Assembly: GCA_965235115.1 (NCBI GenBank)
Contig: OZ249436.1
Location: forward strand, 36,148,001-36,212,000
From: Laetmonice hystrix
Lineage: Eukaryota
Direction: 5' to 3'
Length of the DNA stretch: 64,000 bases
The notes under the pieces were generated by a model, which searched no databases, had not been told where the DNA came from, and saw only the letters and a program-made list of their open reading frames with translations. Every line of letters starts with the position of its first letter. Within the stretch, counting starts at the first letter, position 1. Below are positions 11,801 to 56,477 of this stretch, in pieces. The position numbers were made by a program, and so were the translations under genes.

Positions 11801-14800
11801 AAGAACATCGAATACGGCCATCCAACGATTCCCTGTGTGATCACTCGAATTTAAATCAACGTCAGGTATTTCAATTACGTACTGAACGAAAATACAAATT
11901 GTGACAAGGTAAATTGGGGTCTTGATGTTTTATTATAAACAAATTGTATGGAACCAAAAAAGCAAAGATTAATTTGTCATTTCGGACTTTGCGAAAGTTA
12001 CTAACTATTCTACCGGTTCCAGTGCCATTTCTGTGTTTATATTTGAGTGGATTTCCACGTGAGTGAGAGTCTTTTTTGGACAGCCCACTTTTTTATATTA
12101 TGTCGGTGGGTGTGTGGGTGTGTTTTTGTGGACAGTCCACTTTTTTATATTATGTCGGTGGGTGTGTGGGTGTGTTTTTGTGGACAGTCCACTTTTTTAT
12201 ATTATGTCGGTGGGTGTGTGGGTGTGTTTTTGTGGACAGTCCACTTTTTTATATTATGTCGGTGGGTGTGTGGGTGTGTTTTTGTGGACAGTCCACTTTT
12301 TTATATTATGTCGGTGGGTGTGTGGGTGTGTTTTTTGTGGACAGTCCACTTTTTTATATTATGTCGGTGGGTGTGTGGGTGTGGGTGTTTTTTTTTTTTG
12401 GGGGGGGGGGGGGGGTTAAAGTACCTATATAAGTTGAAGACTTTAGCTGCATGCTTACTGAAGGATGTTATTGTATATTGACCTTATGACAGCTGATGAC
12501 GCTGCAGGAATACTCACTGTCGGTGACACTGAAGACGGCAGCATGGACACCACACGGTCGGCCTCTTCAAGACGTTGGACATTGGATGAATGGCAGGTTG
12601 AGCCTCCACAATGTCCTCTTCCCTAGCGCTAGGTACGGCCTGAATGGACGTCACTTCAAGGTGTTGACAATAGAGGTGTGTAAAATATTTCACGTCTCTG
12701 CATCGGGGCCGCATTTAATCAATCTGTACTTCCTAATCCAATGTGTCCCGATTGTCATCGTTTCAGTGGCCTCCTTTTGTAATGAAGGACGAACACGTAA
12801 ACATCACTTCCTTTTCTGGTTTTTGTATGACCGCATTGGAACTTTTGTCGAAGACCCTCAACTTCAGGTAAGTATGAGATAACTGTTTAATCGAATCCTC
12901 CTTGTACTTATGCCTATATTTCCAGTTTTGCAGAAGAATTCCATCCGATCCTTGGAAACGCGTCTCTTGCCCTTTTTTTCAGCTACACGATCAAGGCGGT
13001 CCCTGACGGTCAGTTTGGAGGCAAACTGGCCAATGGTAGCTGGACGGGATTACTGGGACAGCTAACCTCGAAGGTAATATTTGCTCTTACTACCCCTATT
13101 ACCTCTTACTATGCTATTATTTTGAAATTCCAAAAAATTCTAAGTTAATTTTGAAAAGTGAATTTATGCATATAGGCCTACCCATGGAATATTAAAAGAA
13201 TGGGGGGGGGGGGGAGGAGGGGGTGTGAATTCTGGTAACACTACCTTTTATTTTAGGCACTCCTCGATTCTATTCTTAGGTCATGCACTGAATGTGACTC
13301 AATGTTTAAAGTGCCTTGTTTTACATTATTAGAAGGCCGACATGGTGGTAGCATCATTGACAGTGTCGTACGACAGAGAGTCGATGATTGACTTCGTCAA
13401 GGATTACTACGTTGACTATATCACTGTCCTTTACAGGCGGCCAGACAACCAACTCGAACATATTTCTCTCATCACCAAGTCACTTCGGTAATCTCAATGT
13501 GGAATGAAATAACATAATTTGTTAGAAAGAAATGGTTTCTTATCGAGATTGAAAAAGATTGTTGTTTTGAGGGAATGAAATATAATATATTTCTCTCAAT
13601 CTACACCTCTTTAGTGGCGCAGGGTATCGAGTACTTCGGTCATTCTGCGATTATATATAGTATAGATTTATTTAATTTGTTTAAAGGTCATCATAATTTT
13701 AAAAGGATGATCTATTGATAAATCTCGTAACCGTTACTTTTTTCGTGGATGAAAGCAAATGAAGTAAGACGGAATACACCGAGCTGTTAATCGTTATTAT
13801 ATAGCCCACCACCTATTGGCTGTATTGTAGGTGGGAGGTGTGGTTGGGCGTCGGAATATTCGTGCTCGTGGCAGGAATCAGTCTCAGCTTTGTCTCACGT
13901 CTGCGGGGATCTACTAAAGTTCAAGTCTCCCCTAACGACAGCGGAGTACCTAAAGCTGCATCCCCAGTTTGTCGAGGTTGTCGACCAAAGATCACGGCTG
14001 GGGCTTTGGTTTCTCAGAGTGATAGAAGTCTGGCACACCTTCCAACAGGGATCTGGTTTTCTTTCGGGGCCATTCTGCACCAAGGTGTGAAAATATTTGA
14101 TAGTGTCTGCTGGTGGTATTTATGCAATGTGGTAATCGTATGCTTTTCACATGGAAGAGGGAGGGCCGTATATCTTCATCTTTAAACAATCTGTAAGTTG
14201 ACTGAAAATAGTAATGTCGATTTGCTTAAGCAAGTACCAGGAGGTGTTAATTTCAGTGTCCAATTAAAAATCCCCGGGGACAGTACCCCCTTGCCTAGTC
14301 AGTCGTCTCAACAACAATTTGACACTTGGTGGAATTTTGTGTTGCTACATGGCGTAAGCTCTACCGCAACCGTTGTCAGCGTAGATCTACAGTTTTTGAG
14401 TGTCGAGTGCCATCTGTAATAGAAACATCCTCAGTATACATCACGAACACACAGGCGGATGACGAGTGTTTGTTTTATGTCAGGTAGTGAAGTGGTGCCT
14501 GTCGGTCAACCCGGACGATGCATCTTCTCCTTCTGGTTTCTCTTCTCCATGGTGATCGGAGCGACGTATAGCGGCAACCTGATCGCCTTTCTCACTGTTG
14601 ACAAGTCCAACCCTCCTTTTAGGACTCTGAATGAACTTTGTCATCAAAACCAATACATGATCGGAACGCTTGGGGGATCGATCTATAGTGACATGCTCCA
14701 GGTGAGGGAACAGGCTAATATTACTAAAACATGCAATAAAGAAATTCAGAGAACACTGTGGACCGGTATCAAATTATCTAGGGGAAGTCCGACCTCTAAC

Positions 14801-15655
14801 GTTAAAGGTCTCATCATAGGCATATTTTACACTACACGCCGTCCATATTCCAAAATTTCCACTGTCTTCCACTGGCTAAGAAATACTTTGGTCCATCTTC
14901 CAATAATTTGCAGTACTCCACCAGCGCCACCTACCAATGTTTGTGGGAAAAGATCCAGGCGTCTGTTGAGATTGGACTCCGCGTGACCAGCACCAACCAT
15001 ACAGAACATGCTGAATGGGTTCGTGCCGGCGGCTATGCGTATGTGGTAGACGAAGTGGCCAGCAAAAATGAGATTCTCAAGGACCAGGAGCTAGCCATCT
15101 TGGGCGAGGCCGTCTCGACTTCACCATACGCTATAGGCCTTCAAAATAATTCTGCCTACAGAGAAGCGTTTTCAGATGCGTACGTTTACTTCGTGCAATT
15201 CAGTAGGCCTTTAAGGGCTTAGTATAAAATAATGCAGCATATAGGCTAAGTCTAGCGAAAGAGGTATAGATAGGCCTACGACAGCTTGGCAGAGGATGCT
15301 ACAGTATTCACTTCTCTGAATAGAGGGCCAAGTCTTCGCAAGGCCAGTCCATCTTATACCAAGCTGACCTCCCCCCCCCAAAAAAAGGACCCAGCTTATT
15401 TATGTATCCGATTTTTTATCTAATCACCCGACTTTTCCTTCAAGTGTCCAGAACATGAGAGATACGGGCCTTCTACACAAGTGGCAGACCGACATGTACC
15501 CAGCGTATGTCGGGAAGAGAAGCTCGACACCCAGCCGTGCCATCTCTATCGCCATCATTCACATGGAAGGATTGTTTCTAGCGGCGTCCGTCCTGGTCGT
15601 CTTGGCCGGGTTTATTCTCCTTGCAGAGCGACTTCATCACCGACCTGTCCCATGA
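8828..15655 (+). CDS. Divergent ionotropic glutamate receptor / IR-like gene B (complete, ~13 exons)
   Basis: Exons 8828-8930 (signal peptide MKERVVLYELCLSTFLWIVLL..), 9968-10102, 10480-10713, 10977-11164, 11345-11512, ~12508-12675, 12767-12867 (WPPFVM..GFC), 12983-13073 (DGQFGG..NGSWTGLLGQL), 13333-13487 (ADMVVASLTVSYDRESMIDF), 13831-14084 (M1; pore IWFSFGAILHQG), 14484-14701 (M3 ATYSGNLIAFLT), 14914-15179, 15445-15655 (MRDTGLLHKW, M4, stop). All phases are consistent. Confidence 0.9.
12072..12388. repeat. Minisatellite, 52-bp unit x6 (intron of gene B)
   Basis: GGACAG recurs at 12078, 12130, 12182, 12234, 12286 and 12339. Confidence 0.95.
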
Positions 15656-18446
15656 TTGTAGCGGAAATCCCTGATCAGGGTACTGACGACTCCGTAGGGG
15701 TGGACAAACAATAAGGTCTAGTGCATAGCCAGGAAATAGAAATAACGCACAGCTTGATCAGGGGCATGCATGCCCGAGAAAGTTTCTCTGACGTGCCTCA
15801 CGTGGTCACGGGCCTGCTTAGGCCTATAGTACGATACATTGTATATGATATAATTTAATGTATAATTAAAGCAACCACTCAAGATTACGCAAGACCTGTA
15901 TCTATATATCGTATGGAGCCGCCCACATCAGCTATTGACTGGAGTTCTGCATCGTAGCTTTGGATATAGGCTAGTCTATAATAGTAGGCCTAAAGGCCTG
16001 TCCTGTCGTATCCATCCTTTAAGAGTTGTGCACCTTTTAGGAGTTCCGGTTCCACCAAACCTTATTATCACGCAGCAGTAAAGCATGGCAAACCCCATCA
16101 AGAGTGTGTCTGGTTGTCGATGATGAATTGATGGATTACGCTACTAATTCGTACATTACCTGAAATACAAACAGGAAAGACAACATTGGCGACATGTCGC
16201 CTTGGACACTTGCTCCGTAACATCTGCCTGGATTTAAATTAGGGGACTGATTGGAGGTTCTACAGCTGTGTTGAGCTGAGGATTCGGGAATCATTCTCTG
16301 CGTGCCACCTGCCACCTTGTGAGTACTGTTTTGTTTGTGATCGTGCCTAGAAAGGTAGCGGTTTTGGGAGGAAGATGGCTGCTGCTGCTTGTCATAACCC
16401 TCACCGTGCATTGCCACCGTTTGACTGTACTGGGGATGCCTGGGGGGTATCCCGCAGGTGAACAGACTGGTTGGATGAGTTTGAGTGCTATGCAGATGCT
16501 CTGAGACATTTGCACCGTGACACTTTTGAACATCGCACTAATTGCAAGGCCTCATTAAGATGACACTTGGGCCTGAAGGATGTAAGATCTACAGCATTCT
16601 CGATACTGGTGGGCCAGCATATTACGATACGGCCACCAATGCTTTGAGTAGCCACTTCAAAATGAAGACAAATAAGAGGTTCATGAGAGCATTGTTACGT
16701 GATATGGCGCAAGGGCTCGACGAGTCAATAGCAGAGTATGTCGTCTGCCTGATGAAGGCATCGGAAGGGTGTGAGTTCGGCGACGAAGTAAACTCCCACA
16801 TAGTTGACCAGGTGGTTTTGACATGCACTAATGGGACTCTCTGTGGGAAGTTCCTGGAGAGGGGGGGGGGTGAACTTGACCTCACTGTGATGCAATATAC
16901 CCACGTCAGTCAAGAGCCAGGCCAGCCGTATGCCTGCTGCTGTGGACAGCACTGTAAATCGAGTAAGTCGGGGTCCATGTCACCGAGATCGACAGAGAGA
17001 TAATACCCGGAAACCGGAGGATGGAGGGTGTAGTCGCTGTGGATCCCATAATCATGATGCATCTTACCACAAATGCCCAGTGATCGGACAGAAGTGAAAT
17101 TAGTGCGGAAAACTGACCACTTCGTCAACAAATGCAGGTCTACAGGCCAAGCAGATGGAAGAAACTTCCCATGTCACCGAGGGAAACGATAGAAGAAAAC
17201 CGCCCATTCGAAGTGTTGAATGCACGGCTTTCGACAGCCAGAAAACAGAGCGAGATCCTGCTTGTTCGGCAGCTGCATGGCTATGATCTGCCTAGCGTTT
17301 ATTTTACAGTATATATTAAAGTATAGTGGTCGGACTGCCGGCAGTCAGTTCCTCCCTTCTTCAGATGGCGATGCTAGAATTTAATTGGCGTTATCTGCCA
17401 CGCCGCCTCTCCAGAGATCAGGATAAGCCGGCCTGGCAAGGAGTACACCTGGCGTCTGGACATAGAGTACATTTCTAGAACCAACTCTACACATCAATAT
17501 TAGTTGTGAATAAATAAAAAATGTTACAATAAAGATACATAATAAATACGTCAACATCCCGCTATATTTTCTACAATCTGCAAGAAGGTAGAGGCCAAAT
17601 CAAAGAACTTCTTGAACAGGATATCATTGATCCAGTCAATGGACTGATGCCATGGCTCAGCCCAGTGAATGTCATGAAGCCAAGTGGGGAGATACGTCTA
17701 TGCATAGATATGCGCCGTGCGTCACCCCATTCTAACATTTGACGAGTCCCTACAGGATATGTCGCAGAGTCGTGTATTCTCAAAACTCGACCTAAAATGG
17801 GGTTACCATCAGCTGGAGCTCAAGAGACATCACAGCGTTTGTGGTACACTGTGGGCTGTATCGTTATAAACGCCCAGTTTCCGGCATAAACGCGGCACCA
17901 GAAATTTATCAGTGGGACATTTATCGTCTCCTATTGGGGATTTCCAATGCTGTCAACATCTCAGATGACATCCTAATCCATTGGAAGGACCACGACACAG
18001 CTCTCTGTTAGGTACTTGATAGGATTCGAGATGCAGGGATGACACTAAACAAGGATAAATGCAAGTTTGGTGTGGACAAGGTCACTTTCTGGGCCCACGA
18101 GTTGTTCAGTGACGGGATTGATCTTAGCAAAAGCAAGGTAAAAGCCACCCCAGAGATGAGATTGAGGTTCGCAGTTTCCTCAGACTCGCTGAGTTTTGTC
18201 GAGCCTTTATACCTAATTTTGAGTCGGTCGCCAAACCTCTGTATCAGTTGACACACAAAGGTCAGGAGTTTGTCTTCGGCAAGGCCCAACAAGAGGCTTT
18301 CAAGAGGATTAAGGGAAGTATCAGCAACCCCAAGACGTTAGGGTACTTCAGCCTGGGTGACAAGACACAAGTGATTGCTGACGCGAGCCCCCATGGGCTT
18401 GGGGCTGTACTGGGATGCATGTGTGTGTTATCAGGGATGCAAGCAT

Positions 18447-19767
18447 CCCTGATAACACACACACGTTGGTACAACTTTGGGCCGACGTCAGCAGCTACGT
18501 TGGGCCAACATCAGATGCCAACATTGGACCAACGTCATTTTGCTCATCGGACCCATGTTGGGCCACCAGATAGGCAAACGTTGAAACAGGCCATTGGCCC
18601 AGCATCAGACCAATGTGTGTACAAACGTTAAGCCAACGTCAGATGCCCGACGTTGGACCAACATTTTGCTCATTGGGCCCACGTTGGGCCAACAGTTGGG
18701 CCAACGTTGAACCAGCCAATTGGCCCAACGTCAGACCAATGTGTTTACAAACGTTGAGCCAACGTCTAATACCAACGCTGGACCAAAGTCAGATGCCCGA
18801 CGTTGGACCAATGACATGTTGCTTATTGGTCCCACGCTGGGCCACCTTTTGGGCCAAAGTTGAACCAGCCCATTGGCCCAACATCAGACCAACATGCTTA
18901 CAAACATAGAGCCATCTTCTAATACCAACGCTGGGCCAACGTCAGATGCCCGACGTTGGACCGACGACATTGGGCCCCGAGTTGGGCCACCAGTTAGGCC
19001 AACGTGTGGCACGACCTTCCTCCAACCCGAGCCAATTTAAATAGACTCCCAAATAAAATCCTGGCTCAGGCAGAATCATTGCGTGGGTACGCTATAGTAT
19101 CTCCTGTGCCAGTTAAGCACTGACGCATAACACCCAAACCCTGTCCTCACTATTGTTGTTTCCCATCGGAAATCCAAATTGGTCTTTTCTTTATTGGGTT
19201 GTTTAAAAACAAAATATAATCTCTACGTCCCTATCTTGTTCTTTTCTCACTCAAAAAAAAATAAAGCGTAATTTTACAGAATGAATAGCTGTTCTTGTAT
19301 TCGTGGGAATAACTTGAAGTCGCTAAAAGCTCACCTGGACTGTGTTTGAGACTGTCTAGTTAATCTTACTGATAACAGCGCCACCTAGCGCCTGCTAGGT
19401 AAAGAAGAATTCCAATGTTGGGACAACGTGGGTGTTCCAACTGGGTTCCAACAAAGAGGGTGGCGACAGTGTTGACTAATTACCAACGTTGGGCCAACAT
19501 GGATGTTCAAACCGGGTTCCAACAAAGAGGGTGACAACAGTACTGACTAAATGCCAACATTGGGTCAACTTGGTTGATCCAACAGGGTTCCAACAAAAAG
19601 GCTGTCGACAGTGCTGAATAAATACCAACATTGGGCCAACATGGATGTTCCAACCGGGTTCCAACAAAGAGGGTGGCGACAGTACTGACTAAATTCCAAC
19701 ATTAGGTCGACTTGGGTGTTCCAACCGGGTTCCAACAAAGAGGTTGTCGACAACGTCGGGCCAACGT
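18447..19767. mobile_element. Non-autonomous CACTA/EnSpm-like element nested in Gypsy pol
   Basis: CCC terminus (CCCTGATAACACAC) and two blocks of subterminal ACGTTGGGCCAAC-type repeats (18464-19005, 19411-19767) around a unique core; right terminus missing. Superfamily is inferred. Confidence 0.55.
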
Positions 19768-20887
19768 AGTAGTGAATGGAAGGCTGCTGGTAGTAACCAG
19801 CAGCCTTCCATTCACTCCTATGTTAACTTAACGATCTGGTTATTAACTAGCCTAAACAGCAGCCTTCCATTCACTCCTATGTTAACTTAACGATCTGGTT
19901 ATTAACCAGTCTTTAGTGAGACGGGCCATGAAATCGACCACAGCAGCAAGGACTTGTGAGGCCCTTTGTGAAATCTTTGCTAGGTTTGGCAACCCTCCCA
20001 CCATTAAGACTGAAGGCCCTCAATTCACCTCAGCTACGTTCAGTCAGTTTGTGAGGGGGGAGGGATTGCAGCATCATAAAGTCACACCGAGACATGCCCA
20101 GGCAAATGGGGAAGTAGAAAGACAGAATCAGTCCCTGAAAAAGAGGCTGCGTATTGCCCATTCCCAAGGAGCCGGATGGAAGGAAGCGCTTCGTAATTAT
20201 GTTTTAAAGCAGTATCGGGCCACACCCCACTCAACAACGGGAAAGTCACCAAGATGTTGTTTGGGTTCGACGTACGAACCAAAATGCCTTGGGGATCACT
20301 GGGGAGTTTGCCAACGACTTGGAAGTGCGCGACCGAGATGGCAAGGTAAAAGGCAAGGCGAAATTGTATGCTGATCAAAGGCGCAATGCTGCAGTCTCTA
20401 ACGTTGCACGAGGTGACCAAGTCCTTCTGAAACGCAATAACAAACTGGAAACTCCAATTCTCCCAGAGCCATATCACGTTGTGGCTAGATCAGGGAACCA
20501 GGTGACAGTGGAGTCACCTGCAGGGGTCAGGTATGACCGCAACACAACCCATTATGCGGTACGTCACTGAGACGTCGGATGCCGATGTTGACACCACCCC
20601 TCCAAAGCGTCTGGAACCTGCGGCTCCTCCAAAGTCACAGGAGTCAAAGTCATATTCTAGTTACTGCCGTTTTGGTAGGACACTAGATTAAGTGGAGGTT
20701 CCCATAGACAGCTTAAAACTTGTTGGCTGTGTAGTTGACGCCAAGCCTATAAGTGACATTTAGCTAAAGTTGCTTACAGTTTGAAGAGTTAAGACACGAG
20801 ACAGTATCGAATCCTAGTCACTGACTAAGTATGCCTATAAAGCAGGACTGCTAAGTCTTGGAATCCCTATGTAGGCCTATCCGTTCT

Positions 20888-21708: not shown

Positions 21709-22037
21709 AGGGGGACCGGGGTGGCGCAGTGGTTAGAGCACGGGACCTTTGATCCAAGGGTTCTGGCCGCGCCGGACTTTCCTGCATAAGCAGTGCTGCC
21801 GACTGCTTTATCAAAGGCCGGCCGTGTCACGATACGTCTATGTGGAGGGGCACGTTAAAGATCCCTTGGCACCTATCGATAAGAGTAGGGGTTCGCCCCG
21901 CTGCCAGGTTTCCTCCTATCATCTCATTATCACCCAATGGATTTCACCGACTGAGTTAGTTACCTTGTTCTCGCCCTGAAATAGCTGAAATACTGCTGAC
22001 TGGGCGTTAAACACCAGCTTCTCACTCACTCACTCAC
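21709..22037 (+). mobile_element. tRNA-derived SINE with Deu/Nin-like central domain and (CACT)n tail
   Basis: A-box TGGCGCAGTGGTTAG; central GTTAAAGATCCCTTGGCAC..TAAGAGTAGGGG resembling the Deu/Nin domain; 3' GCTGAAATACTGCT..GCGTTAAAC plus (CACT)4; 13-bp TSD TGGTAGCGTTAAT at 21696-21708 and 22038-22050. Confidence 0.9.
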
Positions 22038-22050
22038 TGGTAGCGTTAAT

Positions 22051-23411: not shown

Positions 23412-25225
23412 CTGTATTTTTCTTTTGAAATGCACGGGCATCAGGGGTAACCCAATTACTTTGACAATGTCCCTAAAGAGAAAAGTTGTATAGTCCTCTA
23501 CAGGAATCGAACCCAGACCCTAAGATTACTGCACCCATTCGCATAGCATAAGGTGTCGACATCCATGCCCGCTAGGCCACCGCCACTCCCCTAAAAAAAG
23601 GAGCTTTGGTGGTCGAGCAGGACAATGGACCCTCCCCCCTACACACATCTTTTTTAAATGAGACGGAATCCATATTTTCCTAGTTAGAGCTACACATGAT
23701 TTCTACCGAACATTGACTGTTAAGGTAATCCTGGCACTGGCGTAGACTGTATTTTTCTTTTGAAATGCACGGGCATCAGGGGTAACCCAATTACTTTGAC
23801 AATGTCCCTAAAGAGAAAAGTTGTATAGTCCTCTACAGGAATCGAACCCAGACCCTAAGATTACTGCACCCATTCGCATAGCATAAGGTGTCAACATCCA
23901 TGCCCGCTAGGCCACCGCCACTCCCCTAAAAAAAGGAGCTTTGGTGGTCGAGCAGGACAATGGACCCTCCCCCCTACACACATCTTTTTTAAATGAGACG
24001 GAATCCATATTTTCCTAGTTAGAGCTACACATGATTTCTACCGAACATTGACTGTTAAGGTAATCCTGGCACTGGCGTAGACTGTATTTTTCTTTTGAAA
24101 TGCACGGGCATCAGGGGTAACCCAATTACTTTGACAATGTCCCTAAAGAGAAAAGTTGTATAGTCCTCTACAGGAATCGAACCCAGACCCTAAGATTACT
24201 GCACCCATTCGCATAGCATAAGGTGTCGACATCCATGCCCGCTAGGCCACCGCCACTCCCCTAAAAAAAGGAGCTTTGGTGGTCGAGCAGGACAATGGAC
24301 CCTCCCCCCTACACACATCTTTTTTAAATGAGACGGAATCCATATTTTCCTAGTTAGAGCTACACATGATTTCTACCGAACATTGACTGTTAAGGTAATC
24401 CTGGCACTGGCGTAGACTGTATTTTTCTTTTGAAATGCACGGGCATCAGGGGTAACCCAATTACTTTGACAATGTCCCTAAAGAGAAAAGTTGTATAGTC
24501 CTCTACAGGAATCGAACCCAGACCCTAAGATTACTGCACCCATTCGCATAGCATAAGGTGTCGACATCCATGCCCGCTAGGCCACCGCCACTCCCCTAAA
24601 AAAAGGAGCTTTGGTGGTCGAGCAGGACAATGGACCCTCCCCCCTACACACATCTTTTTTAAATGAGACGGAATCCATATTTTCCTAGTTAGAGCTACAC
24701 ATGATTTCTACCGAACATTGACTGTTAAGGTAATCCTGGCACTGGCGTAGACTGTATTTTTCTTTTGAAATGCACGGGCATCAGGGGTAACCCAATTACT
24801 TTGACAATGTCCCTAAAGAGAAAAGTTGTATAGTCCTCTACAGGAATCGAACCCAGACCCTAAGATTACTGCACCCATTCGCATAGCATAAGGTGTCGAC
24901 ATCCATGCCCGCTAGGCCACCGCCACTCCCCTAAAAAAAGGAGCTTTGGTGGTCGAGCAGGACAATGGACCCTCCCCCCTACACACATCTTTTTTAAATG
25001 AGACGGAATCCATATTTTCCTAGTTAGAGCTACACATGATTTCTACCGAACATTGACTGTTAAGGTAATCCTGGCACTGGCGTAGACTGTATTTTTCTTT
25101 TGAAATGCACGGGCATCAGGGGTAACCCAATTACTTTGACAATGTCCCTAAAGAGAAAAGTTGTATAGTCCTCTACAGGAATCGAACCCAGACCCTAAGA
25201 TTACTGCACCCATTCGCATAGCATA
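23412..25225. repeat. Tandem array, 335-bp unit x5.4, with a tRNA-like Pol III promoter on the minus strand
   Basis: Units start at 23412, 23747, 24082, 24417, 24752 and 25087 (partial). Copies are nearly identical (one substitution noticed at ~23893). Minus strand carries A-box TGGCCTAGCGGG and B-box GGGTTCGATTCC. Confidence 0.95.
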
Positions 25226-25639
25226 GGTCAGCTTTATAAATTGAGAGATTTTGCATTGTATTGATGTCATCATGATAATCATGAAAAATAAATGAAATTA
25301 TAAGGAATAAGGAGCCAAAGGAGAACATATTTTCTCTACCACCGTGTGGTCAGATAGTCAACCTTCACCCTCCCCGCTTCCTTTGCACATGAGTAGAGCT
25401 GGTTGTGGAGGTGGTCTGGATGTTGGAAGGGGTCCGAGTCCCAGCTGGCCACTAAGACCTCCATGAAGTGCATTATGCTCCATGGACGCTGGGGTAAAAA
25501 TGGATTCTCGACCACCAAGTAAGGGAGAAACACATCAATAACCCTATTCTGTTTGCTGTCCTAATCCAATGAGTGTGCCTGGTTTATTTTCTAACTATGT
25601 ACTATTATTGTTTGTGGCTCAGGTTCATTCTACTGGAGG

Positions 25640-28600
25640 ATGCCGGGGCTCAAAGTGCACGTGACATTGTCAGAGGCGCTGGAGGTGCGGGGCGGTCCCC
25701 TCCAGGAGGATGAGATATGGGGCGTCCTCTGTCAAGGAGCCCAGGCACTTCAGGATCTCTTCCTCACAGGTCAGTATGAACTCCCATACAATTAATTGTT
25801 CATTGAGTTGGTGTCATGAATCAGTTCCACATAGATGTTCTCTTAGTTTTAGTTTTACAGAGTAAAAGTAAACATGGACTAAGTAATCAGTTTGATGGTC
25901 ACAAGATGTCGTTTCTTTTTAATGAGGAACATGAGATCATGATTTTCTAATAAAGTTCACGTGATTAAATCAGTTTTTGCTAAACCCTTTTGCTAAAATA
26001 AGATTCAGTTGTTAGTACATGTACTATCTTGATGTTCGTAAGGGTGCCAGAATCTATAATCGTGAGAATAGAGTTAGGAGCAGCATGTTAACACATTGTA
26101 CACACCAGGACATGTTTGAACCTGGTTGGAGACCCATAATCCCAACTCCACTGTGGTCTGAAGGGTTAAAGATTGAAGGGTCAGGAAAGCTTAATGTAAG
26201 CCTCAGATGGTTTTCCCAGCATGACTGTAGAAATACAACAAAGACACCTCAGACATTAGATTGTTGCCGCCTGCATCTGATCATTATAAAGTAAACTATA
26301 ACCCACAATAGATTCCAAGTTGTATCTTACATGCCTGCCTAGAATCTAGGGAAATTGCCAAAAGCACCTTTTGCATGTATACTGGCCTTGTGGCAGATCT
26401 ACAGATGTGGAGGGCCAGTCACAATTAGGGCTAAAGTTAATTTTCCCCTAGATACTGTAGTCATTTCCAAATTTAAAACTGACTGTGTATGATTGGCATG
26501 TAAAATCCTGCCAGGTCTGTGAGTATCTGGAGCATCATGTAATGTTTTTGTGACATTCCTGCTGACTGTTGCTGACAGGTGAACTGAACAGTGAGGAAGG
26601 CCTGGGGTTTGCAATCTCACCAGACACGCTCATGTTATGTGCTGATGGACACGTGACCTTCGCAGAATCTTCCTTCGAGTCGGTCCGAAACAAGAATGTA
26701 GTGCCTCCCGAATTCTTCCCTGATACTCGTCCTTCAGATGCCATCCTTGAAAAGGTATTAGAAAGTTCACTTGTAAAAAAGGAAAATAATTATGAGTACC
26801 AGTACATTGTTTGACCGGTATGTGATTATTGGACATTTTGGTGTCCAGTTTTCATGGAACCATATCTGTAGGATATTGTTTTGTCATTATATGAGAACCT
26901 AAACATCAGAGTGCTTCAACCATAGTAGCAGGCTTGGTGTCGCAAAGATTTTTGCATTACATCTGGTAAATTCCTGATGTTTCTTCTATTGACCATTGCA
27001 GATGTTAGTGTTTGCTCTCGGGATGACATTGTATGAGGCAGCAGACTTCAAGCTCCCACACCATCAGGTTGGAATCTCTTTGTATTTATCAAGTTAGGAA
27101 TATGGTATATCTTCTAGGTAATGATTCAGCAAGTGATTTGACAAGAAATACTTTCTCTGCAGGGGAGAAAAAGAAGGAAAAATATAAATCATATCAAAGA
27201 AATAACAATTCTCAAGGGCATCCAGTGCCACAAAATGGTTTTAATGTGACTTTTTGTGATATTGTCCTTTTTCACCTTTTCTTATCCCATCCTGTTTTTA
27301 TGCCGTCTTCAGGGAAGGATAAGGAAAGTGAGACATAAGGTACACAAATATATGGTGGCAGATCTCAGTATCACTTTTTAGTGGGAAACATAAGGGAAAA
27401 GTGGTTATTGGGTAATTCCGTTACAGACTGTTCTTCCCCCCTTTACTTAAAGAATATATTTCAGTACTGGTGAATCGTCATTTTCGATAGGAGTATAACC
27501 AAAGAAAGGGCTTAAATCTTTCAGAGCATTAGGGTTATGTTATTTCCAAATAAATTTAGATACATGTAGAATCTTTTTATATTGAGGTTTGCTTTTTAAA
27601 AAACACTGCCTCCTAGCAAATTGCACATTTTTACACTTACTGAATAAATGATGTTTGATCTGCATGTGATATCCACGTTATCAACATCAGTTCACGATTT
27701 CTACCAGTAACTTACACTGAATTTTATCAAAGCAAGGAAGAATTTATTCATAAAAACATATACTTTTTCAGTGCTATCTAAAGAGAGATATACCTGGTAC
27801 TCACATCTCTTGTGACACAGCTCTCTTTTCATAAGCTCTTTCAGATAGGGAATCTCTTGACATGTTTGCAGCAGTTGATTTTCAAAAAAACTTTTTTTCT
27901 TTCAGTCTAGCTTGTAAAACACCTATGAAAACCATACACACTACTGCCAATGTACACTCAGTTTTAATTTTTGCACACCTACTTAAGGAAGTTTTGCCTA
28001 AAGGTTTGCTTTCATAGCCACCATAGATACCATATCTCACGTCATTATTTTAAAAAAAAATTTTTATTTGGACCCCAGCCTATATTTATTTGGCAACGCA
28101 GTACACAGCATGGATAGCATACAGATACAGATCACTATTTACAACCTACAATAATATGGCAGCCTTCAGTAGAATATTAACATGAAAATCACAGAGGCAT
28201 AATTTGACTGTTGGAGAAATATGGACACACATGTAAATCATTATATTTACCTATTCAAGAAATTCAGAATATTGGGTAATGATGATTCTTACCCTTTTAT
28301 TAATGCAAGATTTGCCCCTAAAGAAACTTATTTTTCATCTTTCACCACATACAGGAACTTTCTTTAAGTGCTGCTCTGGATGCCTTACTGAGTGGTATGT
28401 GTGAGGAGAGCACATCACTCCGCAGTTCTCTGGGACAGGTCCTCGAAAGCTGTGCCCATCATGCCCACACTGACCCGTACCATTTGCAAAACTCGCATCA
28501 TGTAACCAAGCTCTACAAACTAGTGTTAGGCAGTGAACAAATGGTAAGTATGGTAGTTGCTTAGAAATGATTCTAATTGTGAAGCTGTGCCAACAGACTG

Positions 28601-40600: not shown

Positions 40601-43600
40601 GTGATGCTCATGTCATCTGTTTTGTTTTTCATTCGTAAACGCCCTCTGCTCAATCTTCAACTTCTGTGGTGTAAAATAAGCAGAATTCAGCAGCATTTAA
40701 CCTACAGTACAGTGTAACTAAATACTTAATGGTTGTAGGGCGTTGTGATTTCTATAATTTCTAAAATTGAAATTAGGCAGACAGGAAATTGTTAATTTGA
40801 GGGCAAACACAACGTTGGACAAGAGGTTGTCTTTATGTGACTTTACTAATAGAATAGGATTAGTGTTTTTGCTTTGGTTATTGCTTCCTGCAGTTGACTG
40901 GATTGTGTCCTGGTCTTGAATGTATGAAACATTGCTGGCATGTGCAACCTGGCTGTCTAGTCAAGTGATGCATTGCGTCATCTGTGAGCTGAAATTATAC
41001 ATGATGGTTATCAGTTACACGAGAGCCTTGCATGAAGTCGTAGTCAGTTATCAGACATTTGGCTGATAAACTGACTTACAGTTACCTTTAACTGTGTTTG
41101 GTGCCAATTTATATAAACAGAACAGTGCTTTGCAAAGCTGCGTGGATAATAAAAGTTAACGGCTAGCTATCCAAAGGGTTCGTCTGAAGGGTCGCCCTTA
41201 TGATAATTCCTGGGCCTGTGCTGTTAAGTTACCAATACAACGCGATTGTGTTTTTGTTATGATTGGTAATATTATCTTTGTTATCATGTATGAATGAGAT
41301 TAATTGAACGATCTGATATTATCGGGTATATAGTATTTGTATAGCAATGAAAACAATATTGCTTGAATTTTAATTAATAAATGTAAGGTGAGACTAACAT
41401 GGAAGTACATGTAATGATGATGGATAGCAGTATAAAACAAAGACAGGCCGGTGAGACGTGAGTAGTCATCCGACAACAATAACAAAACACTGGTTTGAGA
41501 GGGTGACGATCTCTGTTTCAGATACACTTAGGATGATTCAGCTGACGAAGGACATCAGTGGGCTGGGATTCAGTGTTATAGGGGGTAGAAACGTCCACCC
41601 TGACCCCCTGCGCTGTGTCACTCGGGTGAAGAAGGTCTTCCCCATTGGTGCTGCGGCCCAGAATGGTCAGCTGCAGGTCGGCGACGTCATTCTGGAGGTG
41701 AACGAGAAACCAACCAAAGGATTGTCATCTCATGTAAGTATACGCATTATAGACTTGGCCAGGCAGGGCTGGGAAGTAATTCTGTTGGAAAATTTGGACA
41801 GCTGAGATTAATGAAGTCTCATAAATCCAGGGATTATCATAAATTACCCATACATGCTATTTTAAAGCATTTTATTTATTTATTTACAGCTATTGTATTA
41901 AGAATAATTTACTTACGTGGAATTTTAAAAACTTTCTCGGCAGAGCCTTGATAATGGAGTAAAGCTCTGACGTAGCAGTGATGATGCAGCAGTACGGTAT
42001 ATAGAATATGTTTACCTCTGATTACAGGACACTGTGAACTTATTACGTACTGCACCACCTGAGGTCAGCTTACTCATATGCCGACCACTGGAGGGCACGC
42101 TGCCACCAATATCACAGTTGGTAAGATGAAAAGCCATTTTGAATATTGTATATTGCCTAACTTTCTCAAATCTCAATGAGGGTTAACTGCTTCAGCTAAT
42201 TGCCTAGTTTAATAAAATTTACTGTATTTAAGGTGTGCCCAAATAAGGGAAATAAAAAATAATTGTTTTATATGTTCATCTCATTGCAGTTGAATGAAAT
42301 AGACTCATCTCATGACTCATCTTTACGTGAGACTCCGATGTCTCAAATCACTAGTCCACCAATAACCCCCGGTATCGGAGAAAGGGGTAGGAATCCAGAT
42401 GGTGCTTCCCCCTCAGATACACCCCGTACCCCACCAGTCCAAAATAAAACCCCTACACCCCTTCGGGATTCAATAACAAAGACACACCATCACGATCCTA
42501 ACCAGCCAAGTGCCTTAGTTGATAGAGTAACTCCATCAGTAGACCACTGCACTGAACCCGAGTATAGTGATGACGAGGAGTCAAACATTGGCGACTCGGC
42601 ATCAGTCATCAGACTTCAGCCAACCCGTCATGCTCAAAGTGACAGCAGAGATCATAATGGCAGCCAAGAAGAGTTGAACTGTTCACTGGACAGTACAACT
42701 GGAACCGGGTGTAACAGACAGGAACAGCTGTCTAAGGTGAGGCAGGCTCCTTCAGAGGGCACAGACAGTGATAAAGTAGTAGACGTACGGTTAGACAAGT
42801 CACCGTCAGAAAACAGACATCCCAGCAATCACTACATGGCCCCGCAGGATGAACTCTGTGTAAATGGTGACACAGAGGAGGGCTCTGAGGAGGAAGAGGA
42901 GGAGGAGGAGGGACAAGGTGAAGATGACCGTGAAGAGGTTGTGGTGGAACTGGAGGAAGAGGAGGAAGAGGAGAATCTGAAACCTGGGGTGAGATATGAT
43001 TTATGATTACTTTAGATATTGCATTTAAATTCATTCGGCCAATGAAACATTTGATTTCATGTACCTGATAAAGATGTAATGCCCACTGGAGCATGAAACC
43101 CTACCAGATTCATTAACCAGTAATAACAACACCATTATATTCCAACTGCAGGAGTTTGATAACAACACCATTATATTCTGACTGCAGGAGTTTGATAACA
43201 CCATTATATTCCGACTGCAGGAGTTTGATAACAACACCATTATATTCCGACTGCAGGAGTTTGATAACAACACCATTATATTCCGACTGCAGGAGTTTGA
43301 TAACAACGCCATTATATTCCAACTGCAGGAGTTTGATAACAACACCATTATATTCCAACTGCAGGAGTTTGATAACAACACCATTATATTCCAACTGCAG
43401 GAGTTTGATAACAATACCATTATATTCCAACTGCAGGAGTTTGATAACAACGCCATTATATTCCAACTGCAGGAGTTTGATAACAACGCCATTATATTCC
43501 AACTGCAGGAGTTTGATAACAATACCATTATATTCCAACTGCAGGAGTTTGATAACAATACCATTATATTCCAACTGCAGGAGTTTGATAACAACGCCAT

Positions 43601-46600
43601 TATATTCCAACTGCAGGAGTTTGATAACAACACCATTATATTCCAACTGCAGGAGTTTGATAACAACACCATTATATTCCAACTGCAGGAGTTTGATAAC
43701 AATACCATTATATTCCAACTGCAGGAGTTTGATAACAACGCCATTATATTCCAACTGCAGGAGTTTGATAACAATACCATTATATTCCAATTGCAGGAGT
43801 TTGATAACAACACCATTATATTCCGACTGCAGGAGTTTGATAATTAACAACACCATTATATTCCAACTGCAGAAGTTTGATAACAACACCATTATATTCC
43901 GACTGCAGGAGTTTGATAATAAACAACACCATTATATTCCGACTGCAGAAGTTTGATAACAATACCATTATATTCCAACTGCAGGAGTTTGATGTTACCA
44001 TGACAAAGGGTGATAAGGGACTGGGCTTCACAGTGGCCGGTGGTCAGAAGACTGGCTTCTTCTACGTGAAGAGTATCCTGTATAACCCTGCCCTGTCTGA
44101 CGGCCGCATCCAGGAAGGTGACAGACTCATCCAGGTACCTGTTGAAATGTTGGTCTGGTAATAAATAGAAAAGGTGAAAATAATTATAATATGGAATTAT
44201 AAGTTGTAATATATGATTTTATGGAGTTAAGAAGATTTTCCATTGGGGGTTACATTATGAACCTCCAGGGTATGTGCCCCCAGATTAGAAGATTGAATTA
44301 TAATCTTATAAATTATAAGATTAAAGAAATAGAAAAGTGAACTCCAGATAGTGAATTATATATTAAGTGTGGCATTGTTTCCTGACTAGGTGGAAGAGCA
44401 GGACATGACAGATCTGAATCACAAGGAAGCTGTCAACTATCTTCGTCTGACTCCAAATACTGTCACCATCCGATTCTTCCGTCCAGTCCGGGTCGTCACT
44501 CCAACAGATGACCAAAACCACAAGACTGTCAAAAAGGTAATGTGCCCAGATTATAAGGGTTGCTTTTTAAAGCTCTCTTTTTTAATGTCTCAGAAAGTGC
44601 AAATCTGAAAATCATTGAGATTGCTAAGCCAGTGCCCTGGCCTACCGGTAATTGCAGTACAATATACTTCTTTTGATTACCGGTACATTCTCAAATATTT
44701 AGCAAGGGTGTGCCCAAGTCAGGCACCAACGAGCAGGCCCGCCTAGCACTGATTTTAGCTGCCCAGCACAAAACTAAAAGGGTTCAAGTGCTGCCGGGCA
44801 GGAAAATTTATAAGGCCCATCATCTGATAAATATGTGTACTTAATAACTTTTCATACCTTCTCTTGTTTATTCCATCATAAGACGCTAACCACTACGGGG
44901 GTAGGAAGATTTTATAAATTTCCCAACTCCAATTTCTTCATGAAAAATACTACTGCCGGCACTAAATTTTTCCTGGGCACATCCCTGATCTAGTTATGAC
45001 TTTAAAAAAATTTTCAGGTAAAATTTGCCCAAAACAACACAAGCCAAATGCCAAAGGTAACTCTTCAGGAAGCCAGAAAGGTACATTACTTAGAATGCAA
45101 ACTAGGCACCACAGGTCACTGCATGGAAATCTTTGAGAACTTGCCTCACAAAAACTATTTTTCTGATGCCGTCTATGTACACTTAGTCTCTTAGCTATGT
45201 TCACTGACCTGACCTTCATCTCTCAGTTTCTCATATGTAAACAGAGATGCAAAGGGATTGGTTATATAAATTCCGGAGTCGCTTGTCCTGTTGAAAGAGG
45301 ACTTTTTTCTTGTTATCTCAGATTCTACTGAATCCAGGATTCTCAGAATCATAGTGGCTAACCTTCCTCTTGATGAAAGGTGAATGTTATTGATGTTTTA
45401 GGTGTATTTTGGCTTTTGTTGATGTTTCATGAACAATAAACCAGGACCAAGGTTGTGAATATGCTCAGTTTGATGAAGAAATGATTGTGACGGAATGTCT
45501 GGCCCGATCAAGGTCCAGGGCCTGCAGCAGGACTTTCGAAAATAGCAGTTAGCTGTACATTCGGCTAGTAGGAATTAATCTAAAGCTAGGGAATGTGGTG
45601 TTATGAATCGTGCCCTTACTTCCAGACATGTGGTCATGTTTTTTCTAAAATAAAAGTAGGGAAAAAAACTGACCCTGAGATTTCATTGTTTGAACAGAAC
45701 AATAGTTCAGAACCTGAAGGCAGTGATTGCCCCCCTGCCGACCCCCCAGCAACAGCGCCGCCTGGTGGACAGGATGGGGGCAACTACCGATCTGTACGTA
45801 ACATGGTGCAAACACTGGAGGAGAGTCAGAAACTTATCCGACCTCACACGTACGGGCGCCGCCTGGAGGATAGCGAGGATGAGGACGATCTGGAGGTACT
45901 GGAGGAGAGGCACAGGAGCGGGATGCTGACCCCAACACATGACCTGGAAGTCCCCACTGTCGTCACCACTCCAGAGAAACCCCACAGAGGGCCAGAGAAC
46001 GGCAGTGAAGGTCGGATATCACAGGCCTCCTCCTGGGGGAACCTGACCCTTCCGATGCCAGAGGATGAGCACAACGAGGAGGTGAGACAGATTACTGGAG
46101 CACCTGCTACCCCGGTCCCACAGGAGGTGAGTCTGCTCAGTGAACGTATCACAGACAGACTACAGTGCAGTGATAGTAAGATCTCGTAACAAGTGTACAG
46201 TCAAGAATTATTTTAATCTGCCTTTCTTTGAATGAACATCTTCTGCTCTGAAAGTTTAAATGCTCATATTAGGAAGGTGGAGTAGAGGCAAGACACAATT
46301 AATGCCTTCATTAGATGATTCCTTCTGTATAATAGACTTTGAGAGTTAGAGTTACCAGGATGTCAAAAAAAACCATGTCTACAAAGTTTGATTTGTTAGC
46401 CAATTGGTTGGTATTGTTTTATTTTGCAGGCTGGAATAGTAAGAGTGAACCTACATAAAAAACCCAATGAGAGCTATGGTTTTAGTCTCATCCAGGGAGA
46501 GAAAGGGTCGGCCTCTGCCCTTTACATTCGCTCGCTGACACCAGCAGGTGCTGCTGCCGATAAAACCCAAATCCGGGTCGGCGACCGACTTCTCCAGGTG

Positions 46601-55320: not shown

Positions 55321-55663
55321 AAAACATTGGTCGGTGTATACCTTGCCTCTTTTAAGCAATTTCTTTAGGGAAACAGGAAATACTAATAATATCCGTGCAC
55401 ATATGGAACTGACGTCTCAAGAATTTCGTAGTAGAATTCTTGTCAAAACGCGGGACTATCATGGCAGACTATATGAATTGACAAAAAGAGATTTTACCAT
55501 TTTTAGCACGGTCCGATTTGACCGCAGTCATGACCACCGACAGTGAGTGGTGCAGTGGCTTGTTCAGCGGGTTTCTCACGTTCGCAAGATCAGCTTCAAT
55601 TACGACTGACTCTTCTTCCTTTTTTTCCCGTGGCTCTGCGTATCCTTTACTTTGTTCTTTAAT

Positions 55664-56477
55664 GTATAATCACTAGGCTGAGGGTATCTGTATGATCACT
55701 AGGCTGAGGGTACCTGTATAATCACTAGGCTGAGGGTACCTGTATGGTACCTGTATGATCACTAGGCTGAGGGTACCTGTATAATCACTAGGCTGAGGGT
55801 ACCTGTATGATCACTAGGCTGAGGGTACCTGTATGATCACTAGACTGAGGGTACCTGTATGATCACTAGGCTGAGGGTACCTGTATGATCACTAGGCTGA
55901 GGGTACCTGTATGATCACTAGGCTGAGGGTACCTGTATGATCACTAGGCTGAGGGTACCTGTATGATCACTAGGCTGAGGGTACCTGTATGATCACTAGG
56001 CTGAGGGTACCTGTATGATCACTAGGCTGAGGGTACCTGTATAATCACTAGGCTGAGGGTACCTGTATGATCACTAGGCTGAGGGTACCTGTATGATCAC
56101 TAGGCTGGGAGTACCTGTATGATCACTAGGCTGAGGGTACCTGTATAATCACTAGGCTGAGGGTACCTGTACGATCACTAGGCTGAGGGTACCTGTAAAA
56201 TCACTAGGCTGAGGGTACCTGTATAATCACTAGGCTGAGGGTACCTGTATAATCACTAGGCTGAGGGTACCTGTATGATCACTAGGCTGAGGGTACCTGT
56301 ATGATCACTAGGCTGGGAGTACCTGTATGATCACTAGGCTGAGGGTACCTTTATGGTACCTATATGATCACTAGGCTGAGGGTACCTGTATGATCACTAG
56401 GCTGAGGGTACCTGTATGATCACTAGGCTGGGAGTACCTGTATGACTAGGCTGAGGGTACCTGTATGATCACTAGGC
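55664..56477. repeat. Minisatellite, 26-bp unit, ~30 copies
   Basis: Unit GTATGATCACTAGGCTGAGGGTACCT, with ATAATC, GGGAGT and short-duplication variants. Confidence 0.95.

Follow-up and report, generated by a model that had tools for sequence, protein, structure and literature searches.

The window, meaning the whole 64-kb stretch of DNA analyzed, carries on its minus strand a tandem array of a 335-bp unit. The units are nearly identical, with only one site differing among them, and the array is truncated on its 5′ side at unit position 38. Unit positions are numbered on the minus strand, where position 1 is the first G after the T-run. The features of the array are as follows, where PLE stands for Penelope-like element and the helices, transcript and domains are predicted.

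23412..25228, minus strand: tandem array, a single insertion of 5.4 head-to-tail copies of the 335-bp unit
23412, minus strand: 3′ junction of the array, where the insertion ends ...TACAG
23593..23927, minus strand: one complete unit, equal to one predicted Pol III transcript; the layout recurs every 335 bp
23927, minus strand: predicted transcript start (A), marked by a pile-up of 5′ ends
23832..23926, minus strand: tRNA-like head, recognized by sequence
23904-23914, minus strand: A box, within the tRNA-like head
23838-23848, minus strand: B box, within the tRNA-like head
23593..23599, minus strand: T6-7 Pol III terminator, abutting the start of the next unit; its between-locus variability is the highest among the homopolymers
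23600..23630, minus strand: 3′ tail complementary to transcript nt 1-31 (23896-23926), which would join the RNA ends
23708..23807, minus strand: putative PLE-derived 3′ recognition domain (the flagged region), assigned by homology to a PLE 3′ UTR
23800-23807 with 23708-23715, minus strand: helix P1
23783-23788 with 23723-23728, minus strand: helix P2
23777-23780 (CCTG) with 23730-23733 (CAGG), minus strand: helix P3
23767..23774, minus strand: 5′ arm of the conserved core, GCCCGTGC (GCCAGTGC in the PLE)
23734..23741, minus strand: 3′ arm of the conserved core, GCCAGTGC
23742..23766, minus strand: putative priming loop, placed by insertion ends and target matches
23747-23751 and beyond, minus strand: TACAG(TC), the fixed 3′ end of insertions, also found in target DNA

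The best match of the tRNA-like head is tRNA-Arg(TCG), a weak match with a score of 42 against shuffle maxima of 33.5-36 in a comparison that covered 30 loci out of 63 scored tRNA hits; ARAGORN found no tRNA in the 64-kb window. Four sets of sequencing contigs fall on the window and carry variants, with loose contig ends at 23745/23746, inside the priming loop. The tandem junction is present in one set only, from a second organism (run X5, organism B), in which a 364-nt contig on window positions 23660-23994 contains a whole unit plus the junction with 6 differing letters; the repeat family is thus present under a second organism label.

Elsewhere in the window, the plus strand contains an ionotropic-receptor-like (Lig_chan) coding stretch at 14423-15222 with a seeming frame change near 14800-14990, decayed LTR-retrotransposon pieces at 16542-20570 (RNase H-like, integrase) broken by 126/153-, 71- and 59-bp tandem repeats, and another tRNA-headed, SINE-like element at 21710-22040 that ends in (ACTC)n. 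PTPN13-like exons (FERM, PDZ, phosphatase) occupy 25640-48750 on the same strand, and what is likely their first coding exon, near 25640, is downstream of the array. Homogeneous minisatellites are found at 12072-12383 (52 bp), 43123-43993 (36 bp) and 55663-56477 (26 bp).

A dispersed family with one fixed end

A search of the unit's own genome (627 Mb, 35 contigs) returned, from 40 scored among 492 candidates, at least 247 matches of about 99% identity, and a diagnostic 22-mer occurs exactly 4,473 times, as compared to 0 for the control. Judged by this abundance and identity, the unit belongs to a young dispersed family. The 22-mer is found 2317 times in forward and 2156 times in reverse orientation, which makes the link to the PTPN13 pre-mRNA drawn by the first-pass annotation an incidental one.

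The loci compared comprised 38 best-hit stretches, this being how the long loci were chosen, 40 loci from the first 100 22-mer hits, and 30 of 537 variant hits. After de-duplication, these yielded 121 blocks, 115 with a 3′ end away from the locus edge and 101 with both ends usable. The 3′ end fell at unit positions 165-191, within the flagged stretch, in 102/115 blocks, while the 5′ ends were scattered, except that 12/101 lay at unit positions 334-6, the transcript start (binomial p 6e-6). Sixty-three of the 101 blocks are longer than 185 nt and hence span the T-run terminator. A fixed 3′ end combined with variable 5′ ends is the mark of target-primed reverse transcription, and the polarity observed here points to an internally primed RNA of the minus strand, whose start is the tRNA-like head. 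No clear target-site duplication was found for the window's own insertion. As a full explanation, we consider it probable from these sequence comparisons that the 335-bp unit, with its tRNA-like Pol III head, is a non-autonomous retroelement and a SINE-like parasite of a PLE.

A Penelope-like partner in the same genome

A GIY-YIG search of the genome gave 126 matches among 143 scored and revealed a 5,581-bp head-to-tail element. ORF1 is an 839-aa frame with NADAR and GDSL domains, and ORF2 (759 aa) encodes RVT_1, a Cys-rich linker and, at its C terminus, a GIY-YIG endonuclease, the linker between RT and endonuclease being CX4CxxC. A C-terminal endonuclease with a Cys-rich CX2-5CxxC linker is described as a feature of Neptune, common to Nematis (PMC8557442). 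Named by architecture as opposed to an RT tree, the 5,581-bp element is a PLE of the Neptune type, and it is an apparently active element with an intact partner protein. Before ORF1 it carries a minimal CTGAnGA...GAAA hammerhead-type motif with stems I and II that Rfam does not detect. The copy at L139:2445-7219 (C7:18345000-18354999 of the same genome) is a two-ORF PLE that forms full head-to-tail arrays, the longest with at least 7 units; its ORF1 couples the NADAR domain to a GDSL/SGNH domain.

Copies of the PLE are 5′-truncated and terminate at AAAT|ACA(G), some 100 nt past the stop of ORF2, and they are found in the same minisatellite targets as the small unit, ending at the same site. 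Unit positions 122-164 and 172-205 match the PLE 3′ UTR at 78% and 88%, respectively, in the ORF sense, and a longer gapped alignment scored 133, as compared to 52-100 for 21 other element windows. By these alignments, the flagged stretch and the 3′ UTR of the 5,581-bp PLE in the same genome are homologous. The unit agrees with its partner in having a fixed 3′ end and variably truncated 5′ ends, in inserting in tandem, and in its targets. One of the two functions proposed by the first-pass annotation for the flagged stretch, a replication signal, is supported: the fixed 3′ (priming) end of insertions falls within the stretch, and the stretch is common to the autonomous element. It is a candidate cis signal bound by the PLE protein; homology and shared ends are observed, and the binding would follow from them.

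A second PLE family (L153, L154) encodes a 789-aa ORF2 that is 41% identical, has many copies near contig ends, and carries short tandem repeats behind the stop. The two-arm motif described below was not found near its stop, with one arm present ∼420 nt behind the stop in L154 only. PLE-like RT matches also occur in records labelled as bacterial MAGs (L249-L289), which are probably eukaryotic contamination.

Folding of the flagged domain and its probable working strand

The first-pass annotation had drawn a nested plus-strand fold over the flagged region of 96 nt. All of its strings are in place (ACATTG at 23710, AAGGTAAT at 23722, CCTGG at 23730 and TGTATTT at 23748, with their partners AAATGCA at 23763, TCAGG at 23776, ATTACTTT at 23790 and CAATGT at 23800), and the outer ACATTG/CAATGT and CCTG/CAGG helices are real and conserved, but the full structure as drawn cannot form. 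The proposed GGG-GTAA-CCC hairpin (23779-23788) has two Gs in common with the TCAGG arm (23776-23780), and the pair that closes its GNRA loop is broken by the variant 23781 G>C (385,008/1,243,051 summed contig depth, run X1). The loop-side arm of the TGTATTT/AAATGCA helix is present in only 2/7 families. The large asymmetric internal loop is conserved, being a mirrored view of the minus-strand two-armed GCC(A/C)GTGC motif. Part of the drawn middle helix is kept on the plus strand in subfamily B too.

Helices are indeed present in the flagged region, yet the RNA that functions would be the minus strand of the window. Three independent lines place it there, namely the Pol III boxes with the start-site pile-up, the orientation of the partner ORFs, and the fixed 3′/variable 5′ polarity. 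The opposite assignment arose because folding energy alone favors the plus strand for this copy: the plus strand does fold better (-23.7 versus -14.5 kcal/mol), but not beyond chance, with z = -1.45 and 20/200 shuffles equally good; the minus strand has z +0.40. Subfamily substitutions in P1 and P2 give mostly G-U on the minus strand, the exceptions being one A-C and two other mismatches; the sequences compared were those of subfamily A, of the PLE, and of three B-type copies with one intermediate. Among these, a P1 pair varies as G-C, C-G or U-A between the two subfamilies and the PLE. Pairing of the outer helix is thereby supported at the level of sequence.

The core is clearly conserved in sequence. 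Its four G-C pairs are paired in 20/20 cells with one compensatory change, and core pair counting on a MAFFT alignment lay within the shuffle control (341/500), so that the covariation sought by the first-pass annotation holds for the outer helix but is not significant for the core. Pairs this near to invariant, and within the shuffle control, mean that the two arms may be unpaired direct repeats; we infer core arm pairing as a possible arrangement. The modelled minus-strand domain fold lies above the naked-RNA minimum (-11.5 versus -19.4 kcal/mol). Cognate flanks in 7 families, among which unit A and the PLE are close kin, gave a mean pairing energy of -13.9 kcal/mol, as compared to -7.7 for swapped flanks, with 2/5040 permutations equally good; these energies do not select a strand.

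A two-arm motif behind the stop codon of PLE relatives

In metagenomes, 26 loci encode ORF2 relatives at 33-65% identity, and 21 of these extend to the stop codon. GCC(A/C)GTGC occurs within 150 nt after the stop in 10/21, two of which (L160, L161) are near-identical, as compared to 0 antisense and a background of 2 in 108,086 nt. The exact motif is absent from the first 150 nt in the other 11, 6 of which have less than 150 nt available. Loci with further sequence show a second arm as well (L160/161, L170, L171, L181 and, as a variant, L183), and several truncated copies pass into a microsatellite between the arms. In other families the loop holds repeats of the CT-, TA/TG- or CCCTAA-type, and repeats of this kind are also where truncated relatives end. 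CCCTAA telomere-type repeats lie behind the stop in L181 and L164, in L181 inside the loop between the arms.

The two-arm pattern searched in the unit's own genome hit almost only minisatellites, with the control equal (75 versus 75), and two patterns for the subfamily B 3′ arm matched at 1 and 2 places. A stricter 5′-arm pattern matched none of 42 distant loci in genome contigs, and no relative was found in the viral contigs searched.

Loop sequence and insertion targets

In subfamily A, 82/90 distinct terminal junctions extend 4-7 nt into loop sequence. For 56 junctions the flank was found a second time; once the 5 that belonged to further element copies are set aside, 29/51 have at least 4 loop nt in the target; the targets are often the same minisatellites, so junction counts overstate independence. 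The 3′ core arm lies beyond the priming site and is missing from the last copy of every insertion. Subfamily B, with 33 pattern hits, instead has a loop that in 4 internal copies reads (T)CACTCT, and its terminal junctions start with TCAC/CAC in 8/15 cases and with TACA in 0/15, whereas those of subfamily A start with TACA in 109/120 and with CAC in 1 (Fisher p 1e-11). The match between loop and target suggests that the RNA may help choose the insertion site.

Two minisatellite families (L033, L040, L047, L080 and L044, L045, L054, L067, respectively) have TACAG in their units, and both are insertion hot spots for the unit and the PLE, often with nested insertions. Subfamily B copies often lie within CACT repeats.

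Predicted pairing of the RNA ends and array homogeneity

A single predicted Pol III transcript spans the unit exactly, and terminator and start follow each other without a spacer. Transcript nt 1-31 are predicted to pair with positions 297-329 (pair probabilities 0.7-1.0), and a junction-spanning window on the minus strand has a folding z of -4.32, as compared to -0.5, no better than shuffles, for the whole predicted transcript. The terminal helix keeps its pairing in older copies, where G4-C326 changes to A-U. With the RNA ends held together in this way, ligation or an RT jump would be possible.

Most of 38 multi-unit arrays are uniform for an array-specific haplotype. T6 and T7 junctions are found on three haplotype backgrounds and are mostly uniform within arrays. 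The T-run junction has its modal form at 43/91 loci, as compared to 82/90 to 118/118 for four other homopolymers (loci not de-duplicated).

Discussion

Taken together, the data are consistent with the following route, for which the junction pattern is observed and the order of steps is our reconstruction. Pol III would begin at the tRNA-like head and transcribe the minus strand as far as the T-run, as judged from the boxes and the 5′-end pile-up. The flagged domain, presumably copied from the PLE 3′ UTR, would then be bound by the PLE protein, with the outer helices and the two-armed GCC(A/C)GTGC core presenting a single-stranded loop. After the GIY-YIG endonuclease nicks the target DNA, the freed 3′ end could pair with the loop over 4-7 nt, and reverse transcription would start there, inside the RNA, to stop either at random, giving 5′ truncation, or at the transcript start. 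Where the paired 5′ and 3′ RNA ends are ligated or jumped across, RT could circle repeatedly and produce homogeneous arrays. This last step, in which arrays arise from an end-joined or circular monomer template, is the least certain, and we favor it by a narrow judgment.

Existing arrays might instead be the source, through read-through or host Pol II transcripts, or homogeneous arrays might be produced by amplification at the DNA level after insertion, a plausible reading that we hold to be somewhat doubtful. A homogeneous parent array also yields homogeneous offspring, homopolymer slippage could vary the T-run, 18/64 multi-copy loci are heterogeneous at the junction, and just 5/101 5′ ends lie at exact unit multiples (p 0.06). 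Against this, a T6-7 run should terminate Pol III transcription, the terminator directly abuts the start site, a helix with compensatory changes holds the ends, and the T6/T7 forms on three backgrounds are mostly uniform inside arrays. As to targeting, it falls only a little short of probable that the protein alone, through its endonuclease or CxxC linker, picks the target, in which case the loop co-evolved for primer pairing and subfamily B used an older, different PLE. CAC precedes the shared TACA in 14/29 targets (hand count) and is absent from the RNA, so that part of the specificity is not RNA-paired and points to a protein contribution; for Neptune, a microsatellite bias of the protein has been hypothesized (PMC8557442), and no PLE partner for subfamily B was identified. 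Loop and target nevertheless change jointly between A and B, a change that fits cause and co-evolution equally, and the repeats in which truncated relatives of other families end are also carried in their loops.

The other function named by the first-pass annotation, a novel ribozyme, would have the domain cut RNA at the fixed end on either strand. The unpaired-looking conserved core, the fixed end within the domain, and a tandem layout that resembles retrozymes would suit such an activity, as would the A^GUC that A copies carry at the fixed end, which we take to resemble a hairpin ribozyme site. That last resemblance was dropped because B and the PLE differ at this site. No ribozyme model matched in Rfam searches of the window (gathering threshold), the array (E up to 10) or the 5,581-bp PLE, and no hammerhead core was found on either strand of the 335-bp unit. 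Moreover, the loop sequence is not conserved, the end position tracks target identity over 4-7 nt, and the PLE has its separate hammerhead-type motif before ORF1, leaving self-cleavage by this domain very unlikely. A functional plus-strand structure in the PTPN13 pre-mRNA is more improbable still: although the plus strand folds better for this copy and the FERM, PDZ and phosphatase exons lie downstream on that strand, the insertion is recent with nearly identical units, its copies stand in both orientations genome-wide, its z is just -1.45, and the motif lies in the ORF sense of PLEs.

The unit works, as far as its structure indicates, like a SINE or retrozyme of a PLE, though it is not a retrozyme by definition, as it is without a hammerhead. 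Non-LTR retrozymes are likewise short non-coding units in dispersed head-to-tail arrays, with kinship to PLE terminal sequence and a proposed circular template, but each is described as carrying a type I hammerhead (PMC7229834; 10.64898/2026.07.22.740005); the 335-bp unit has none, and in its place has the tRNA head, terminator and paired ends. The SMalpha/Sjalpha repeats of Schistosoma are also tandem, SINE-like and apparently transcribed by Pol III, but hammerheads cut their monomers from multimers, and the available text of the review names no PLE partner or priming domain (PMC6765202). Chlamys MRC1 is similarly non-autonomous, with multicopy head-to-tail insertions into repeats, 3′ similarity to an autonomous PLE and no canonical hammerhead; it differs in being algal and of an N-terminal-endonuclease clade, and neither a tRNA head nor a two-arm motif is described in the available text (PMC8557442). 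Poseidon PAc resembles the present case in that RT starts inside the RNA, at an AC-rich stem-loop, but its site is within the ORF and lacks homology to the cut DNA (PMC11167929), as opposed to a site ∼100 nt behind the stop with 4-7 nt common with the target. PLE tandems, PLE-derived hammerhead retrozymes and non-autonomous Chlamys elements (PMC7229834, PMC8557442), schistosome Pol III hammerhead repeats (PMC6765202), and internal initiation in Poseidon (PMC11167929) are thus already known from these sources.

Like tRNA-derived SINEs (SINE2, with LINE-derived 3′ tails), the unit joins an A/B-box tRNA-like head to a segment of its partner's 3′ end. Unlike SINE2, its partner is a PLE, priming is internal with half of the unit past the point of priming, and the terminator lies within most of the insertions sampled. 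In telomerase RNA, a template/alignment region serves the TERT-related RT at the 3′ end of repeat DNA. The loop would correspond to it by analogy, as a short single-stranded stretch of a structured RNA that may pair with the 3′ end of repeat DNA; here, however, the whole RNA is copied.

In full-text searches of the open literature, neither a hammerhead-free, PLE-mobilized tRNA SINE nor the two-arm motif or loop-target co-variation was found; Repbase, Dfam, subscription papers and supplements could include related families. With mobilization in trans putative, the 335-bp unit appears as a new variant among non-autonomous PLE derivatives. A more general scheme can be offered only tentatively, in which Neptune-type PLEs possess a conserved, telomerase-like RNA module whose loop is a swappable target guide, and a parasite with a tRNA head took this module over, with a Pol III start, a terminator and an end-pairing helix in place of the hammerhead, leading to ribozyme-free rolling reverse transcription.

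How PLE RNA is recognized, how microsatellite insertion occurs and how tandems form are stated questions in the field (PMC8557442; PMC11167929). The locus offers an ∼100-nt candidate for the minimal cis element, whose conservation extends over RTs that are just 39-65% identical, together with an intact partner protein and a naturally occurring variant of the loop that has different targets, making RNA-directed PLE targeting directly testable by a loop swap. If true, the model would give PLEs a partner of the SINE type and provide a way to retrozyme-like arrays that needs no ribozyme.
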